Notes: generated by a model not told the origin, from the sequence alone. Numbered from the whole stretch's first letter, positions 25,072 through 39,134 are shown. The stretch: DNA of 63,841 bases, filler included, from an uncultured Methanosarcinales archaeon (GCA_964409385.1; 5 parts of 5 records of this genome joined end to end with filler, not necessarily neighbours in it); one strand, 5' to 3'. Program-made: numbers and translations.

Positions 25072-25210
25072 AATCTTGAACACAATCATTACTAGAATCA
25101 GAATCACAAACACCACACATATCCTCTACTGAACTCCCACCCCATTCATCAGCACAATCTTGAACACAATCATTACTAGAATCAGAATCACAAACACCAC
25201 ACATATCCTC
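25072..25210. repeat. Intragenic tandem repeat, 84-bp period, at contig end
   Basis: aatcttgaacacaatcattactagaatcagaatcacaaacaccacacatatcctc occurs twice. Confidence 0.9.
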
Positions 25211-26977
25211 ACTGAAACAATCATCTTCAATAGTTGCATAAGGATTATAATTACAATATTCTTCTTCTAGACAACCACTAGTTGGTAAAACTTCTATATT
25301 AAGATACTTTGTTATTTCCATGTCCTCAACTGTGGCAATTATTTTATGAGAATAATTTCCAAAATTTTGGTTTCCTGGAGTATTAAAAGTAACACCTATT
25401 GTAGGTATTGTGTATGTATAGCCTTGAACCCAGTCTTCACATTCACCAAAGAAAGAATTACATGAATAGGGAGTGTAATTTCCTCCAGGTCCTGTTATTT
25501 GTGCAATTATTAAGAAAGAATCTCCTGCAGAATATTGTACTGTCATGCCAGTTATATCGTTTTGAAATCCACTATTATAAAAAATAACTTGTGGAGGTTC
25601 TCCTGTCATCAAATCATCATCTATCATTGCTACTGTTTGAACAGCATCTGCAACATCTACATCTCCATCTCCATCAACATCGGCTGCATTACTTTGTTCC
25701 TCTGTTAAGACTCCGTCTATTATTGAGTTCATAATTAAATCAACATCTGCTTGAGTTACTAAACCATCATTATTAACATCTCCACTACAATAATTAACAT
25801 AATCACAACTTCCTAGATTACAATATAATGCATCAGGATCATAATTACAAGCTGTAGACTCGCAACAAGTGGCAACTTCAAAAAGTCCGTCTTTAGGATT
25901 CATAAAAATTTGTATATCTTCAGGACCTTCAATACCTATCCTGTATGAAGTTCCCATTTGAACAGTTTCTAAAGTCGAGACTTTATCAGGTTGTAATACT
26001 GGATTGAACCAGCAAGAAATTAATTCCTCATTTGAAGCAGAACAACCATCAAATGAAATTGGATTTCCAGTTTCATCATCACAACAAACAATACTTCCAG
26101 GAGCAATAAACTTCACGTAATTGTTTAGAAAGTCTGCAGGAAATGCTTCTTCAATAAGTACTGGTTCTGTATCTTCCCATAAGAAATGAACAACATTATT
26201 CCCACCAAGTTCTGTAATTGTTGAAGTATCTACCATTACACCTTCAAAAGTAATATCTAAACTTTCTGGCTCTTTTAATTTTATAAACAGTCCCTTATCA
26301 GGAGTTATAGGCAGATTCAGCATATTACCTTGCCATGAAGAACCCACACAAAAAGCAGCCCCATCCCCAATTATATCAATTTGTATTTCACTATTACAAT
26401 AAGCATCAAATAAGTCATGAAAATCAGCAGTATTTGAATTTTCTGGAAAAACATACACACCTACTGACTTGAAAATTCCTTGTTCTAAATGTATTGTTTG
26501 TGTTTCTAAAGTTTCTTCTTGTTCTCCTGAATAATCTCCTTGTATTATTCCAACAATATCTTTATAATCTACAAATCCGCTTTTATCAACATCACCTATT
26601 GAGAATTGTTCTCTTAATAATCCTTTATTATTAACTAATGAATCCATTATTAATCCCGCATCTTCAGGAGTAACTCCTCCACTTCCATCAACATCTCCAG
26701 AAAGTTTATCATACAATGGTTCTACTCTTATTTTCTTTAACAAGTCAGGACATAACTTGGTAGTCATTTTCAATAATGCATCTCCTTTCAAATGAGAATT
26801 CTTAACCCATGCTTGAACATCACAATTTTCTGTTGATTTAACATTTAGTTCTATTTCAACCGTTTTTGTCTGTTGTAATCCTCTAAAAGCCTCTCCAGCA
26901 ATATCATTTTGAAAAAACATTGTAGCCATTAATAGAACTAGAACTAATACTGACGCTGCAATTAAGTTTTTTCTCAC
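25072..26977 (-). CDS. Secreted dockerin-like/EF-hand and Cys-rich repeat protein (3' truncated)
   Basis: N-terminal hydrophobic segment (GTG start proposed); GDVDGSGGVTPED, GDVNNDGLVTQAD, ADVDGDGDVDVAD; ACNYDP; 28-aa CGVCDSDSSNDCVQD repeat. Confidence 0.8.
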
Positions 26978-27127
26978 AGTTAAATTAATTAGAAGTTCTA
27001 TATAAAAGTTATGAAAACAAAGTTTAACAATTAGAACTTTTGTTTCAAACTTGAAGAATTTCAATATTAAGATTTTAATAAATCAAAACAGCAAATTTTA
27101 TAAACACGTACTTGTATGTTTAAACAT

Positions 27128-27768: not shown

Positions 27769-28947
27769 ATGATTATTGGTATTGTTGGAAAGCCAAATTG
27801 TGGGAAGTCCACTTTTTTCAAGGCTTTAACTCTTGCAGAGGTTGAAATTGCTAATTATCCTTTCGCTACTATAAAACCAAATCATGGTGTTGGGTTTGTC
27901 AAGGTTGATTGTCCTGACAAATTCTTTAAGGTTTCTTGCAATCCTAGAGAGGGTTATTGTCATAATAATGAAAGATTCGTGCCTGTTGATGTTATTGATG
28001 TTGCGGGATTAGTTCCTGGAGCTCATGAGGGTAAGGGCATGGGTAATCAATTCTTAAGTGATTTGAACCAGGCTGATGCTTTAATTCATGTTATTGATGT
28101 TTCTGGATCTACTAATGAAAAGGGGGAAACTGTTGATAAGGGTTTTTACGATCCTGCTAATGATATTAAATTTTTAGAAGCTGAACTTGATCATTGGTAT
28201 TTAGGTATTTTGAAGAAAGGTTGGGAAAAGTTTGCTAGACAAGTTCAACAAACTAATTCTGATATTACTAAAGCATTAACAAAACAACTTTCAGGGCTTG
28301 GAGTTGATGAGGAAATTTGTAAATCTGTTTTAAGAAAATTAAACTTTACAGAAAAACCAGCTACTGAATGGGCTAAAGAAGAATTATTGGAACTAGCTAC
28401 TGAATTTAGAAAAGCAACTAAGCCGTTAATAATTGCTGCTAATAAGATTGATGTTTCCAAAGATAATTTTGAAAGATTAAAAAAACAATTTCCTGAATTA
28501 ACTATTATTCCTTGCTCTGCAGAATCAGAACTTGCTTTGAAAGAAGCTTCTAAACATAAATTAATAGATTATATTTCTGGAAGTACTGATTTTAAGATTC
28601 TTAAGAAAATGACTGAACAACAAGAAAATGCTTTAAATTTCATAAAAAATAATGTTTTAGAAAATACTACTGGCGTTCAAAAAGTTATTAACAATGCAGT
28701 TTTTAAAATTTTAAAATATAAAGCAATATTTCCAGGAGGGGTTAATAATCTTGCTGATTCTGACGGTAATGTTCTTCCTGATTGTTTCTTAATGCCTCCT
28801 AAAGCTACTGCTTTAGATTTTGCTTTTAGGATTCATACTGATATTGGTAAAGCATTTGTAAAAGCGATTGATGTTAAGAAGAAATTACCTGTTGCTAAAG
28901 ATCATATGTTAGAATCTGGTGATGTTGTTGAAATTATGACATCTTAA
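27769..28947 (+). CDS. ychF: YchF/Ola1 family ATPase (OBG GTPase superfamily)
   Basis: GKPNCGKST, ANYPFATIKPN, DVAGLVPGAHEGKGMGNQFL, TGS domain. Confidence 0.96.
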   Translation: MIIGIVGKPNCGKSTFFKALTLAEVEIANYPFATIKPNHGVGFVKVDCPDKFFKVSCNPREGYCHNNERFVPVDVIDVAGLVPGAHEGKGMGNQFLSDLNQADALIHVIDVSGSTNEKGETVDKGFYDPANDIKFLEAELDHWYLGILKKGWEKFARQVQQTNSDITKALTKQLSGLGVDEEICKSVLRKLNFTEKPATEWAKEELLELATEFRKATKPLIIAANKIDVSKDNFERLKKQFPELTIIPCSAESELALKEASKHKLIDYISGSTDFKILKKMTEQQENALNFIKNNVLENTTGVQKVINNAVFKILKYKAIFPGGVNNLADSDGNVLPDCFLMPPKATALDFAFRIHTDIGKAFVKAIDVKKKLPVAKDHMLESGDVVEIMTS

Positions 28948-29957
28948 AGAAGAATATTAAATAGATATCCTATGAATAAAACTTGTGGTACTGTTATTAT
29001 TGGAAGCCAAATTGCTGTTTTTTTTCCTATATTATTCCATATTAATCCAATTTCAGTATAGTCTGTTGCTACTCCTGCCATTAGGAAAACAAATGGATTT
29101 CCTAGAGTTCCTACTTTACTAAAAATTTCAAATGCAATTGGTGAACTTCCTTCGCTACATACTTCTATTATTGTTGCGAAAAGTAAAGTTAATAATACTC
29201 CTGTGAATGAAGGTCCAAAGTATTGCATGAAAATATGAGCTGGAACGTATGCTCTTATTACTGCAGCAATTGTGAAGCCTATTAGTATCCACCATAAAAC
29301 CATATTTGCTAAATGTATTGTTCCATTATAAGTGCCTTTAATGCTTTTTTTAAGATTGAAATTTTTAATATTTTTCCAAGTATAAGTTTCTTTAAATTTC
29401 ACTTTTTTAGATTGTTCTATTAATTTGCTTTTTTCTAATATTGTAAAAATAAATCCTGTGATTAATGCTATTAACATTGCACCTAGTACAAATAATAATG
29501 CCTTCCAACCAAAAAATCCGAATAAGAGAATTGTTACTGGGAGATTAGCCCAAGGAGATGCTAATAAGAATGTTATTACTGCAGGAATTCCTGCACCTTT
29601 TTTATAAAGTTGCATGGATATTGCAAGTATTCCATGAGAACATGCAGATAATAAAAATCCTGCTATTACTGCATACAATAAAGTTGTTTTTTTCTTTCTT
29701 CCTAAATATTTAAAGATGAATTCTTCAGGAACAAAATATTCAATTAAACCTCCGATTACTAATCCTAAAAGAATTGCCCACCATATTAAACTAATATAAG
29801 ATAGTACACTTTCATTCAATGCTGTTAAGAATGGATGAAAAGAAACCAGCAAAATTATAATGAAAAGTGTTCCAACAATTTTTAGTTTCTTTCCTATTTT
29901 TACTAATGATCTATTCTCTTTTTCAGGTTCACAATGATGACAAGTTTTATCTTTCAT
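28944..29957 (-). CDS. DUF318/ArsP-like permease
   Basis: About 8 TMs in two repeats; SACSHG, FLLASPW, EVCSEGSSP, FLMAG; N-terminal CHHC. Confidence 0.85.
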   Translation of the reverse strand: MKDKTCHHCEPEKENRSLVKIGKKLKIVGTLFIIILLVSFHPFLTALNESVLSYISLIWWAILLGLVIGGLIEYFVPEEFIFKYLGRKKKTTLLYAVIAGFLLSACSHGILAISMQLYKKGAGIPAVITFLLASPWANLPVTILLFGFFGWKALLFVLGAMLIALITGFIFTILEKSKLIEQSKKVKFKETYTWKNIKNFNLKKSIKGTYNGTIHLANMVLWWILIGFTIAAVIRAYVPAHIFMQYFGPSFTGVLLTLLFATIIEVCSEGSSPIAFEIFSKVGTLGNPFVFLMAGVATDYTEIGLIWNNIGKKTAIWLPIITVPQVLFIGYLFNILL

Positions 29958-30302
29958 TTACTTATACGCATTTAAATTTTCTAAATTTTCGAAATAATAA
30001 ACTGTATTGAAAAGATCAACTCCTATTATTGCAGTTGCTTTATCTACTGAAGATCCACTTACTGGATCTATTGCAAATCTTATTGATGGATCGTTTTCTA
30101 ATTTTGCCTTGCAGCCCATGCAACAACCATAATATGTTTTTCCGTCTACTTCTACTGGTATTTGTTCTGTTGTGTATGCATCATCATTTACCATACAAAC
30201 ATATTTGGATTCTATTATTGAGAGTTTGGCTTCTTCAGTAACCATTCCTGTCGTTGTACATCCCATTATAAAAACTAAAAAAATTGCTATTATTATTTTC
30301 AT
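29958..30302 (-). CDS. YHS/TRASH-like exported metal-binding protein
   Basis: Signal/lipobox-like IMGC; VCMVND, YYGCCMGC, AIDPVSG..VDK. Confidence 0.8.
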   Translation of the reverse strand: MKIIIAIFLVFIMGCTTTGMVTEEAKLSIIESKYVCMVNDDAYTTEQIPVEVDGKTYYGCCMGCKAKLENDPSIRFAIDPVSGSSVDKATAIIGVDLFNTVYYFENLENLNAYK

Positions 30303-30424
30303 TTTATCGCATTCCTTATTATTTCAGAATTGCAAGCATTGTGTTTCTTGCAATAATCTTCGCATTGTTTGGCTAAACTTTCTTCAGAATATTTAAAACC
30401 ACATTCTTTACAAGTATAGCTCAT
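30299..30424 (-). CDS. 41-aa Cys-rich zinc-finger microprotein (absent from ORF track)
   Basis: MSYTCKECGFKYSEESLAKQCEDYCKKHNACNSEIIRNAIK; ATGA overlaps with both neighbours. Confidence 0.8.
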   Translation of the reverse strand: MSYTCKECGFKYSEESLAKQCEDYCKKHNACNSEIIRNAIK

Positions 30425-30744
30425 TCTAATGGGCATTCTGAAAGTTGTGCTAGTGTTTCTAGACTTTGCTCTCCTGAATATGTTTCTCCATTAATATACC
30501 ATGTTGGATAACCTTGTACTCCTGCATTAGTACATGCTTGAGGATTATTATCGCAATTCACATAAGCTACATTTTTGAATGAATTTCCAAACTGTGATTT
30601 TTGATTTTGACAGTATGAACACCAATCTGTTCCATACATTATTACGCCATTATCAGTTAGACAATTTGCGAACTCATCATAATTTCCTGTTCCTGAACAT
30701 GCTGCTAATAATAACAAACTTATGATAAAAATTGTTTTTTTCAT
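30421..30744 (-). CDS. Thioredoxin/glutaredoxin-like lipoprotein
   Basis: LLAAC lipobox; MYGTDWCSYC, YVNC...C...VQGYPTW. Confidence 0.85.
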   Translation of the reverse strand: MKKTIFIISLLLLAACSGTGNYDEFANCLTDNGVIMYGTDWCSYCQNQKSQFGNSFKNVAYVNCDNNPQACTNAGVQGYPTWYINGETYSGEQSLETLAQLSECPLE

Positions 30745-30768
30745 TTTATTACCTCTGATTATTTTATT

Positions 30769-31227
30769 TTAATTTTGTTCAGTTATTGGATAGTCGTATT
30801 TTTCAAATATTATTTGTTTTAATGTACTTAAATGTTGTTCTCCTACTTCTTCTGCTATAGCCGTCGCAAAATATTCTGCGAGGTAGGGATTACCATGTCC
30901 TTCTAATATTTCACCAATACACTCTCCACAGGGGTGTTTTCCTAAAATTATATCATTTAAACAATCGCATGAGGCTCCTTCTCCGTGTCCTGGTGTTTTT
31001 TCTATACAGTACATACAAGGTTGATCTAAGCAACATCTGTATTTATGTTCTGGTCTTAGTTCTTCTTGAATTGAATTTTTTAATGATGTGAATGTTTCTG
31101 TTTTGTGTTCCATACTTTGATGGTCTTCCATAAATCCATTAAATAGTTGGACTACTATTATTACTGAAATTATTAATACTAGGTTTTTGATAAACAGATT
31201 TCTTTTATTTCTTTTTTTAAATCTCAT
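30769..31227 (-). CDS. Membrane-anchored Cys-rich hypothetical protein
   Basis: N-terminal TM; eight Cys in YRCC..PCMYC...CDC...HPCGEC. Confidence 0.75.
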   Translation of the reverse strand: MRFKKRNKRNLFIKNLVLIISVIIVVQLFNGFMEDHQSMEHKTETFTSLKNSIQEELRPEHKYRCCLDQPCMYCIEKTPGHGEGASCDCLNDIILGKHPCGECIGEILEGHGNPYLAEYFATAIAEEVGEQHLSTLKQIIFEKYDYPITEQN

Positions 31228-31237
31228 TTTTCACACC

Positions 31238-31699
31238 TCATATTGTTATTCTTTCAGAATATTGTCCGTTTGTTAAATGATATATTGTCCATGGTTCTGT
31301 TTTTGGTCCTGGCATTCCTGGTGTGCCTGATGGCATTCTCGGTAGTGAAACTCCGTCCACATCTGGTTTTTCTTCTAAAAAATTGATTACTTCATCTATT
31401 GGAACATGTCCTTCAATAAAATAATCGCCTATTACCATTGTATGACAACTTTCCATGTTTTTTGGGATTTGATATTTATCTTTTATACTTTTCAAATCTT
31501 GAGAATTGACTGTTTCTACCTCAAACCCTTGCTTTCTCAACTCATCTATCTACCCTACACAACAACCACAAGTTTCTGATTTATAGACTAAAGCTTCATT
31601 ATTTCCTATCTTGTTAATTAACTCTTCAGAATCTACGCTTGGAGTACAACTAACAATAAATATTGTTAATACTAACAATAACAGAGGAAAAAGTCTCAT
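31238..31699 (-). pseudogene. DUF411 (CopG-like) metal-binding lipoprotein interrupted by in-frame TAG at 31550-31552
   Basis: MRLFPLLLLV..VSC...YKSETCGCCVG*IDELRKQGF...SCHT...YFIEGHVP...MPSGTPGMPG in one frame. Confidence 0.8.
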
Positions 31700-31701
31700 T
31701 C

Positions 31702-31902
31702 TCAACAACCACCTACCATTGTTGCTGGTGCTTGTATTCTTGTTGATTCTGCTGTTCTTTGACTTGTTGTTACTGGGGTATTTATTTCTCCCGTTTCAAT
31801 TTGTTCTTTTATTGAGTCTATTTGTATTGTTTGTGCTATTGAAAAAATTAGTAAGAAAAAAACTAGCACCATCATCAAATAATTTTTGTTTTTTATTTTC
31901 AT
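31702..31902 (-). CDS. Small single-pass membrane protein ending MVGGC
   Basis: TM, Thr/Ser-rich linker, PATMVGGC; start 2 nt after upstream stop. Confidence 0.75.
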   Translation of the reverse strand: MKIKNKNYLMMVLVFFLLIFSIAQTIQIDSIKEQIETGEINTPVTTSQRTAESTRIQAPATMVGGC

Positions 31903-31904
31903 TT

Positions 31905-32561
31905 TTAACATCCCCCTACCATTCCGCCACTTGCTTGTCCTTTTTCAATTCCTCTATTTGCATTTGTGGCTAATGATAAAAAATTCACTTCTATTCCTTG
32001 TTCTTTCATTATTTGTTCTTTCCCTTCATGTATTCCTGGGAAAAAGAGCATTTTTAGTTTAGAAACTTCTTCTAATATTAATGTATCACTCATATCAGGA
32101 TAATTTCTTATTAAATATTTTGTGATTCCTCTCATTGCATAAGCATGTGCACAACCGCATGCTGACTGTCCATTTTCTGAAATTATTGATCTTGCACCAC
32201 AGCAGTATTCACATGAAATTCCTCCAAAATCAGTATATAATATTTTTATGTATCTTTCTAATTCATTACTTGTTAATGTTATTGATCTGTCTAGATTTGA
32301 AAATTTTGAAATTGCCACATCTGCTTTTGCAGGGTCGTAAGGATCTATATCTTCATAATAAAAGTCTAGATCATTTCCATAAAATTCAGGAATTCCTTTT
32401 AATGAAGCTACTAATGAAGTTGTTACAGATCCTGTAGCTAAACTTCCCATATTATTTGAAGAAGTTGTTAATGAACTTAATTGATAAGCATTTACTACTA
32501 TTATTAATAATGTTACTGCTATTAATCCAAATAAAATGTTTTCGTTGTTTTTTTTATTCAT
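31905..32561 (-). CDS. Single-pass Cys/His-motif protein ending MVGGC
   Basis: TM; ISCEYCCGA, ACGCAHAYAMRG; GGMVGGC; GAGGGG SD and TATA upstream. Confidence 0.8.
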   Translation of the reverse strand: MNKKNNENILFGLIAVTLLIIVVNAYQLSSLTTSSNNMGSLATGSVTTSLVASLKGIPEFYGNDLDFYYEDIDPYDPAKADVAISKFSNLDRSITLTSNELERYIKILYTDFGGISCEYCCGARSIISENGQSACGCAHAYAMRGITKYLIRNYPDMSDTLILEEVSKLKMLFFPGIHEGKEQIMKEQGIEVNFLSLATNANRGIEKGQASGGMVGGC

Positions 32562-32615
32562 TATTTTTCCCCCTCTATTATAAATTAAATATGAAACCCT
32601 TTATAAAAGCTTGTT

Positions 32616-32629
32616 TGAAACTAGTTTCA
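32616..32629. promoter_or_regulatory. Perfect palindrome TGAAACTAGTTTCA beside TATA box (candidate operator)
   Basis: 14-bp palindrome just upstream of minus-strand TTTTATAAA (about 32599-32608); extra TGAAAC/GTTTCA half-sites at 32592 and 33071. Confidence 0.5.
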
Positions 32630-33067
32630 TTCCTTTAGAATAACTACGTTTGTCATGCCTCGTCTTTTCCTTTCTATAATTCCTTTTCCTTCTAATTTAT
32701 CTAGAAGTCTAGAAACTTTTACTTTATTTAGTTCTAATTTTTCTACTAGTTCTGATTGGAAACTTGTTCCTTCTGATTGTCTTAATTTCCTAACTATTTT
32801 TTTTTCTTCATTTGTTAAATCATATTTCTTTCTTATTATTTTATTATCTGCAAAGAACACAAGATATATTCCTATCAATACTGTTAATGACATAACTAAT
32901 AATCCTATGTTTGTTTGTAATTGTATTGTTCCCCACATTGGACAAGTATTTCCATGAGTGCATGCTGAAGCAACTATTTCTTTTAGTGCTTTATTAAACA
33001 TTAAGATTATTATTCCTATTATTATTGCAAAGCCTATTATTATTCCTCCTACTATTTTGTTTTTCAT
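32627..33067 (-). CDS. Membrane-anchored winged-helix regulator
   Basis: Two TMs flanking CTHGNTCPM; C-terminal FQSELVEK..LNKVKVSRLLDKLEGKGIIERKRRGMTN. Confidence 0.85.
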   Translation of the reverse strand: MKNKIVGGIIIGFAIIIGIIILMFNKALKEIVASACTHGNTCPMWGTIQLQTNIGLLVMSLTVLIGIYLVFFADNKIIRKKYDLTNEEKKIVRKLRQSEGTSFQSELVEKLELNKVKVSRLLDKLEGKGIIERKRRGMTNVVILKE

Positions 33068-38792: not shown

Positions 38793-39134
38793 ATGAAAAA
38801 ACTATTTTTGATTATTGTTTTGTTTTTAGTGAGTTGTTCACCATCTTCGCAAACAACAATTGTGGATAACGAAAATTTGAGAGTTTGTGAAATTGGTCTT
38901 CCTGATTTATATTGTGACGCTTGCGCTTCTAATTCAGAGTTTATTCTTGAAAATTTGAATGGTGTGGTTAGTGCTAATGTTAATTTTGATAATAAGAATG
39001 CTATCGTAATTTATGATCCTAGTATTATTTCAAAAGATGAATTATTATTAGATACTGTGATTCAATATTATAGTGGTGTTATTTTGGATGATTCTGTTTG
39101 TGATTTTGATGAATTATTAATTGTTTGTAATTAA
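38793..39134 (+). CDS. HMA (CopZ-like) domain lipoprotein
   Basis: LVSC lipobox; LYCDACA...GVVSANVNF....VIYDP. Confidence 0.8.
   Translation: MKKLFLIIVLFLVSCSPSSQTTIVDNENLRVCEIGLPDLYCDACASNSEFILENLNGVVSANVNFDNKNAIVIYDPSIISKDELLLDTVIQYYSGVILDDSVCDFDELLIVCN

Follow-up and report, generated by a model that had tools for sequence, protein, structure and literature searches.

The nine Cys-rich genes at positions 28944-33067 of the archaeal DNA analysed here (the window: 63,841 nucleotides of assembly GCA_964409385.1, several contigs joined, with the whole cluster inside one contig, C8) encode a conserved yet undescribed set of Cys-rich surface proteins that stands under its own DNA switch and most likely serves in copper defence. 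We read the cluster as a copper-stress regulon of Nanoarchaeota that combines two modules, export by a permease and capture by surface thiols, and put the probability of this reading at roughly 0.6. A simple membrane permease seems to be used here where relatives use an ATP-driven copper pump. The genome (G000; 798 kb in 15 contigs, completeness rating 100%) has its closest named relatives among the Nanoarchaeota (Woesearchaeota, Pacearchaeota).

The original prediction, made from the DNA alone, had treated the nine genes as one tightly packed system in which every product carries Cys, His or Met motifs. All nine minus-strand frames are present and eight of them are packed, with intergenic gaps of 2, 2, 10, 24, -4, -4 and 0 bp from the CEYCC gene to the permease gene, whereas the regulator stands 65 bp from the others behind a gap that holds an operator and a TATA box. 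The microprotein has a single Cys. Pfam cut-offs were passed by the products with a DUF7343/MarR-type winged helix-turn-helix (wHTH), a DUF411, a thioredoxin and a PF03773 domain; the CEYCC, microprotein, 8-Cys and Zn-finger products matched no Pfam family at cut-off. The GC content of the cluster shows no anomaly (0.299 against 0.298). The features are as follows.

32627-33067, minus strand: membrane-anchored one-component regulator: C-terminal wHTH of DUF7343/MarR-like type, two transmembrane (TM) helices and a conserved pair of Cys in the outer loop
32616-32629, no strand assigned: putative operator, a perfect 14-bp palindrome TGAAACTAGTTTCA, overlapping the regulator stop codon
32592-32615, minus strand: archaeal promoter region, read from the sequence and of presumed function
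32615-32610, minus strand: purine-rich hexamer resembling a TFB recognition element (BRE)
32608-32600, minus strand: TATA box
32597-32592, minus strand: operator half-site GTTTCA, behind the TATA box
31905-32561, minus strand: CEYCC protein, 218 amino acids (aa), with N-terminal anchor, outer helical domain CxxCC...CxCxH and MVGGC C-terminal tail; no known family
31702-31902, minus strand: MVGGC microprotein, 66 aa, with TM anchor, flexible linker and a single C-terminal Cys
31238-31699, minus strand: CopG/DUF411 lipoprotein gene (PF04214) with an in-frame TAG at 31550-31552
30769-31227, minus strand: anchored 8-Cys/His protein of 152 aa that fits no known family or fold
30421-30744, minus strand: thioredoxin-fold lipoprotein (WCSYC; PF00085)
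30299-30424, minus strand: cytoplasmic Cys-rich finger, 41 aa (CxxC...CxxxCxxxxxC), candidate Cu/Zn chaperone
29958-30302, minus strand: YHS/TRASH-like lipoprotein (GCCxxC), rare, PF04945 below cut-off
28944-29957, minus strand: DUF318/ArsP-family permease (PF03773)

The nine-gene cluster is a mosaic of modules and not one conserved unit. Of 490 pattern matches to the CEYCC protein in GTDB, 465 were accepted, and the best 80 of these were compared as loci, a sample that leans to close relatives, with many loci cut by contig ends and 31 of full length. A core of membrane wHTH (67 loci), CEYCC protein, MVGGC-type microprotein (75) and CopG/DUF411 (55-57) recurs in most of these 80 DPANN loci, and its common order (wHTH, CEYCC, microprotein, DUF411) is the order found here; to this extent the predicted co-occurrence holds. 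The other cluster members do not follow it: the Cys finger occurs in 14-16 loci, thioredoxin in 11, the 8-Cys gene in 8, and the YHS-like gene and this permease in none. Neighbours outside the cluster point to copper, with a Cu-ATPase carrying CPC/CPH-type motifs within 10 kb of CEYCC in 39 loci, a cupredoxin in 27, and HMA and multicopper oxidase genes nearby as well; DsbA and ArsR genes were each counted in 22. The second module, DUF411-8-Cys-(Zn finger)-permease, recurs separately in 3 of 80 metagenome loci carrying the 8-Cys gene (the best 80 of 129). In L180 and L193, DUF411, 8-Cys, finger and permease follow one another as they do here, and L221 has repressor, DUF411, 8-Cys and permease.

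Of the 301 sampled genomes of the order, 27 carry the subfamily of the permease (PF03773, 143.5 against 32.3 bits), whose members are clearly set off from other proteins: they share 54-73% identity with E <1e-60, while the next genomes score near 1e-23. CopA is present in 3 of these 27 genomes (3 of 25 without G131 and G207) and in 181 of the 274 others; the genomes are kin and not independent, so a Fisher test overstates the significance. Nine families (f14, f21, f24, f59, f72, f99, f109, f119 and f133) contain both permease-only and CopA-only genomes. In several loci a marker gene, present in 23 of the 301 genomes, stands ahead of the permease gene; it is followed by CopA in 14 of the 23 (13 in the locus, one 2.7 kb on) and by the permease in 8, a ninth permease genome is split by a contig end, and CopA and permease together were found in none. 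Among 8-Cys loci of at least 5 kb (n = 36), CopA occurs in 12, this permease in 3, both in 0 and neither in 21. The permease takes the CopA slot in two different operon types, and from these distributions its subfamily appears to replace CopA. As predicted, the cluster lacks a P-type ATPase, and no Cu-ATPase was found elsewhere in the genome: TIGR01511 had no match, TIGR01525 stayed below cut-off, and the one protein with DKTGT, an ATPase of 890 aa, lacks CPC. The P1B-1 Cu-ATPase of cop-type operons was thus found in neither operon nor genome. The CEYCC gene itself occurs in 67 of the 301 genomes, of which 60 have CopA compared to 124 of the 234 others (again kin), and among the seven CEYCC genomes without CopA, three (G000, G009, G159) have a gene for this permease no more than about 8 kb away from CEYCC. 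The full-length subfamily members (n = 24) often begin with a TRASH-like segment (14) or have an N-terminal CxxC or CC (22), and C-S-H and C-S-E membrane motifs are invariant. According to the available text of the sources, growth on Zn or Cu depends on the distant relative SO_0444 (PMC3219624), and a homolog is induced by Cu and Cd (PMC10092412). As a side observation, an unannotated membrane protein encoded between a wHTH gene and CopA or a DUF318 permease (L147:5938-6774 and relatives; 23 of the 301 genomes, not this one) has a PHxGC motif, an HMA-like CPGH domain and a Cys-rich tail, and matches no Pfam or NCBIfam model.

The regulator passes PF24034 (DUF7343; 46.6 against 27.6 bits), has two TM helices and gave no TRASH or Lrp match. 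Its outer loop had been described as CxHxxxCPM; the two Cys are conserved (each in 73 of 79 homologs), while the His is kept in 20 and the Met in 31. A de novo search upstream of CEYCC genes returned GAAAC-N2-GTTTC as the top gapped palindrome (49 of 80), and the 14-mer occurs within one mismatch in 58 of the 80 upstream stretches, from which its consensus had itself been derived, against 0.1 in shuffles. Across loci, 72 operator-type sites lie outside genes and 3 inside. The copy at 32616-32629 is the sole site within one mismatch in the genome (shuffled expectation about 1), and it sits just upstream of the BRE-like hexamer and TATA box with the same spacing as in related loci. In a quick tree of 103 wHTH proteins, the operator lies beside 40 of the 69 members of this regulator's clade, 0 of 32 in the sister clade and 0 of two long outliers (Shimodaira-Hasegawa-like approximate likelihood ratio test supports 89 and 94). 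Since the operator tracks its clade, the membrane wHTH is the probable binder of the palindrome. The Pyrococcus regulator CopR acts as an activator when bound to a palindromic site that immediately precedes the BRE (available text of PMC7830388), and because the position matches, the membrane wHTH probably acts as an activator of the eight-gene transcript. The operator is also found ahead of copA-containing operons (L160, L161, L162, L166, L168, L170) and of permease operon L156. A scan for sigma-70 promoters gave chance level only, as expected in an archaeon. The 32 paralogous membrane wHTH proteins of the sister clade (L016-L095, L128-L172), never beside the operator, often stand ahead of DsbA or copA operons.

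The CEYCC protein and the microprotein share a Cys tail. Residues C117, C120, C121, C135, C137, H139 and C218 of the CEYCC protein are invariant in 118 aligned sequences, and the five inner Cys and the His are kept in 135 of 136 distant ones. M-[VI]-G-x-C forms the C-terminus of each of the 120 nearest CEYCC proteins, and among distant ones of at least 150 aa a Cys lies within the last two positions in 122 of 136, with a differing linker. The microproteins have only anchor and tail in common; no residues other than the tail's M, V, G and C are invariant, and one Cys follows the TM helix in 101 of 101. Two or three copies of the microprotein reading frame were seen in 27 of the 80 loci. Positive-inside charge bias predicts an outside C-terminus for 111 of 118 CEYCC proteins (N-in/C-out) and 82 of 101 microproteins. 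A predicted complex between the microprotein tail and the CEYCC domain scored 0.21 against a mark of 0.32, which is evidence neither way. CEYCC relatives number 560 of 757 candidates at 90% clustering and 295 at 50%; the longer ones show no informative fusion, one carrying an FKBP domain, and atlas matches were to hypothetical clusters only. No relation could be detected to PCYCGC (PF13798; hhalign probability 5.8%, TM helix only, against a 5-sequence alignment) or to the 8-Cys family. Separately, an extra Met/His motif (EMHG or MHP) was seen in the linker of 34 of 101 microproteins (L023-L092), often in tandem with a plain copy. Behind CopG, the CEYCC islands also hold unannotated genes: 52 of 80 loci encode a membrane protein with HCPLC, behind which stands either of two alternative partners (25 loci each), and 30 encode a CCAHH membrane protein (examples L077:12154-12681, L026:3859-4350, L088:7244-7684 and L053:8740-9180), seldom alongside the 8-Cys gene.

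The predicted DUF411 lipoprotein belongs to that family (PF04214, 78.7 against 27 bits; PDB 6WIS, E 2.9e-20) but is not intact, as a TAG at 31550-31552, three codons past the CxCC motif, splits the gene into a 49-aa lipopeptide ending after CxCC and a 100-aa remainder without signal. The position is Tyr in 101 of 119 homologs. The CopG ligands C44, C46, C47, M122 and M129 are all encoded here, as in 119 of 119 homologs; the stop separates CxCC from the Met ligands, so that no single exported chain holds both. In a protein collection the 49-aa piece was found on 7 contigs and the 100-aa piece on 6+8+1 contigs from up to four sources, contigs which may share samples and on whose assembly the TAG rests, and no intact form within 90% identity was present there. 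Stops were absent from all DUF411 matches in GTDB loci (0 of 56); one metagenome fragment (L247) has a stop inside CxCC. Recoding of TAG was rejected as unlikely, since TAG is a common stop (it ends 98 of 600 open reading frames of at least 150 aa) and PylS was not found; there is also no CUA tRNA among the 21 tRNAs. The database protein P0520 (1536-bp contig; a microprotein variant read through TGA) continues into the start of the thioredoxin gene instead of DUF411. This suggests, indirectly, that in a strain of about 94-96% identity the microprotein gene abuts the thioredoxin gene and both the DUF411 and the 8-Cys gene are missing.

The 8-Cys protein is a constant partner of CopG, with DUF411 directly upstream of it in 66 of the 69 metagenome loci with room. 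The family counts 611 relatives among 618 candidates, and eight Cys and three His are invariant or nearly so in 119 homologs. Its model (predicted local distance difference test score, pLDDT, 84.7; built without the first 12 residues) found no convincing match (best fold Z 3.9). A CsoR/RcnR-family repressor (PF02583 over cut-off) occurs in 9 of the 80 8-Cys loci, with the copper-sensing RicR as best NCBIfam model, below cut-off. In this lineage the CopG/8-Cys pair appears to be decaying. One could go further and regard the whole cluster as a decaying remnant of little function, to which the nonsense codon, the near strain that appears to lack both genes and the absence of CopA would all fit; with the other eight frames intact, every conserved ligand present and a perfect operator, we consider this very improbable.

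The predicted role in surface metal sensing, capture and transport is thus supported, with neighbours that point to copper, although the nine genes are not one unit and the CopG copy is broken. Under the copper-stress reading, the membrane wHTH would sense copper, or thiol oxidation caused by copper, through its outer Cys pair, bind the palindrome upstream of BRE and TATA box, and probably activate the eight-gene transcript. The DUF318 permease would then stand in for the missing CopA and export Cu(I) from the cytoplasm, with its own N-terminal CxxC and the small Cys finger supplying the metal. Outside the cell, the tethered Met-Val-Gly-Gly-Cys tails of the microprotein and the CEYCC protein may catch Cu(I) or copper-oxidised thiols and deliver this cargo to the CxxCC/CxCxH site of the CEYCC domain, while the thioredoxin lipoprotein would reset thiols. 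By analogy with CopG, CopG and its 8-Cys partner would oxidise or store Cu(I), an arm that the stop codon disables in this genome. A bolder version remains tentative and somewhat doubtful: an ATPase-free copper defence of novel design with a one-component TM sensor of outside copper, DUF318 as a true CopA substitute, and membrane-tethered MVGGC arms that would physically hand Cu(I) on among three partners, namely the exporter, the CopG/8-Cys oxidase pair and a new multi-Cys domain resembling CcmH.

Several observations weigh against a copper-stress regulon. Within the regulator's clade, 29 of 69 members have no operator within about 220 bp. Three genomes hold both CopA and the permease and 93 of 301 hold neither, and gene absences are soft because the relatives are draft genomes. 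The Pfam family of the permease is named after an arsenical exporter, and the protein stays below the models for SO_0444 (NF033936; 119.9 against 300 bits) and SaoE (107.4 against 325). ArsR-family genes lie near the permease in L130, L137, L144, L180 and L193. Finally, the 80 CEYCC islands hold many thiol-redox and oxidative-stress genes (DsbA 22, thioredoxin reductase 9, superoxide dismutase 7, hemerythrin 9), and a redox signal is therefore conceivable.

Alternatively, some of the cargo could, together with the permease, serve arsenic or zinc/cadmium efflux within a general heavy-metal island, with the exclusion of CopA reflecting habitat or lineage. Membership in the ArsP family (PF03773), the nearby ArsR genes and a Shewanella DUF318 gene needed under zinc stress (available text of bioRxiv 10.1101/072470) would agree with this. 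However, the permease sits in the exact slot of CopA in two operon types, the exclusion persists within nine families, no arsenate reductase or arsenite pump family occurs among the annotated recurrent neighbours, and ArsR genes flank copA as well, which together make such an island quite improbable.

A thiol-based alternative arises from the CEYCC structure model (pLDDT 90.7; tail 85-88), whose best fold match is the thiol oxidoreductase CcmH (Z 5.9, root-mean-square deviation 2.9, 76 aligned residues, 16% identity; next match 4.1; the tool's mark for a clear match is Z 8). The genes could then form a surface thiol-disulfide repair regulon (Dsb/Scs/CcmH-like) with copper as only one inducer and no metal relayed, in which the CEYCC domain would work as a dithiol oxidoreductase, mixed disulfides would travel on the MVGGC tails, and the regulator would read the disulfide state. 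DsbA, DsbD/CcdA, VKOR, glutaredoxin and thioredoxin reductase are frequent neighbours, and the Cys pair alone is conserved in the sensor loop. Yet Z 5.9 falls in the range of common helical arrangements, and PF03918 (CcmH) was not one of the 25 families listed (of 31 with E<=1) for the 118 CEYCC members, had no match in this genome and gave only weak rows in four other genomes, distant from their CEYCC genes. Five clustered Cys and a His are more than a dithiol requires, the CopA, CopG and CsoR links are copper-specific, and DsbD/CcdA was not found in this genome with the queries used. We therefore consider thiol repair without metal relay unlikely. A PDB sequence search with the CEYCC profile gave chance rows only. 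Neither the CEYCC nor the 8-Cys model had a Foldseek hit at E<=0.001, and a second look gave none, which is no proof of new folds.

Turning to the remaining proteins, the thioredoxin lipoprotein passes PF00085 (29.9 against 23.5 bits) with WCSYC and the lipobox LAAC, and the genome has an Lgt homolog. Relatives of the 41-aa finger in the CEYCC loci conserve its Cys; one of them, and not this finger, passes the cut-off of DUF7128. The YHS/TRASH call stayed below cut-off with both PF04945 (20.5 against 30.3 bits) and TRASH PF08394 (16.4 against 27), and the gene occurs in 2 of the 301 genomes, this one and G273. An HMA lipoprotein mentioned as a neighbour is indeed present at 38793-39134 on the plus strand (CxxC, over the PF00403 cut-off); with no operator it was rejected as a regulon member, and nothing ties the protein to the operon. 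A similar anchored HMA protein lies inside a CEYCC island in L137. Genes of the kind found in the islands also lie scattered over this genome: a VKOR gene converges on a cupredoxin lipoprotein gene (C1:194194-194937) and a separate anchored Dsb-like protein is encoded at C3:27513-28610, both without operator. In the window, 25072-27064 on the minus strand encodes a large secreted protein that runs off the contig end, with Cys-rich repeats and D-x-N-x-D-G repeats that we take to be dockerin-like. Near-identical DNA occurs in marine metagenomes, with 6 of the 8 runs listed sharing half the words or more; the runs come from two studies and one is possibly the source. No RNA dataset was among the matches listed for the cluster DNA.

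Copper export in prokaryotes is credited mainly to P1B ATPases, and DPANN archaea have no periplasm and little known stress regulation. A permease alternating with CopA across families and taking its place in operons offers an entry to a possible ATP-independent copper export route, and with a copper role, if true, some members of the large DUF318 family would gain a substrate. Through its operator and regulator, a regulon can be delimited in uncultured DPANN archaea. Targets for new metal/thiol chemistry are the shared Cys-tail motif and two Cys-rich families of high conservation that have neither a known family nor a clear fold.

No description of the system was found in the open literature, including the main text and two supplementary files of PMC8204110, with subscription papers and bioRxiv supplements outside this scope. 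The cluster works like a cop/cut operon, yet the defining ATPase keeps it outside that class, and its regulator differs from CopR. With CopG/CutG (PF04214; PDB 6WIS, 6WJE) it shares CxCC and two Met aligned to 6WIS, export and the copA link, features of CopG that the available text of review PMC7558416 gives as CxCC plus two Met ligands and a link to copA (PMC7922089 does not mention CopG); the copy here is lipid-anchored, stop-split and paired with an 8-Cys protein and not with a multicopper oxidase. Further hallmarks of CopG are a tetranuclear Cu cluster and oxidation of Cu(I). SO_0444 and ArsP are in the same Pfam family as the permease, which lies below the SO_0444 and SaoE cut-offs, often has a TRASH-like N-terminus and alternates with CopA instead of accompanying it. 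In common with the CopR/CopT regulon of Pyrococcus and Sulfolobus, a palindrome lies directly upstream of the BRE at copper genes (available text of PMC7830388), whereas CopR, soluble and Lrp-like, has a TRASH sensor and the motif TTNNCAWWWTGNNAA, and the regulator here is a two-TM DUF7343 wHTH with an outer Cys pair and a different palindrome. CcmH/NrfF (PF03918; PDB 2HL7) likewise has an anchored helical domain with CxxC after the first helix; the CEYCC protein differs in lacking a sequence match and in its extra Cys/His cluster and C-terminal Cys tail, and its neighbourhoods show no sign of cytochrome c maturation. Scs/Dsb systems link extracytoplasmic thiol chemistry to copper tolerance. 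SoxY carries its Cys on a Gly-rich, C-terminal GGC swinging arm, whereas the MVGGC arm described here is membrane-tethered, Cys-terminated and common to two proteins.

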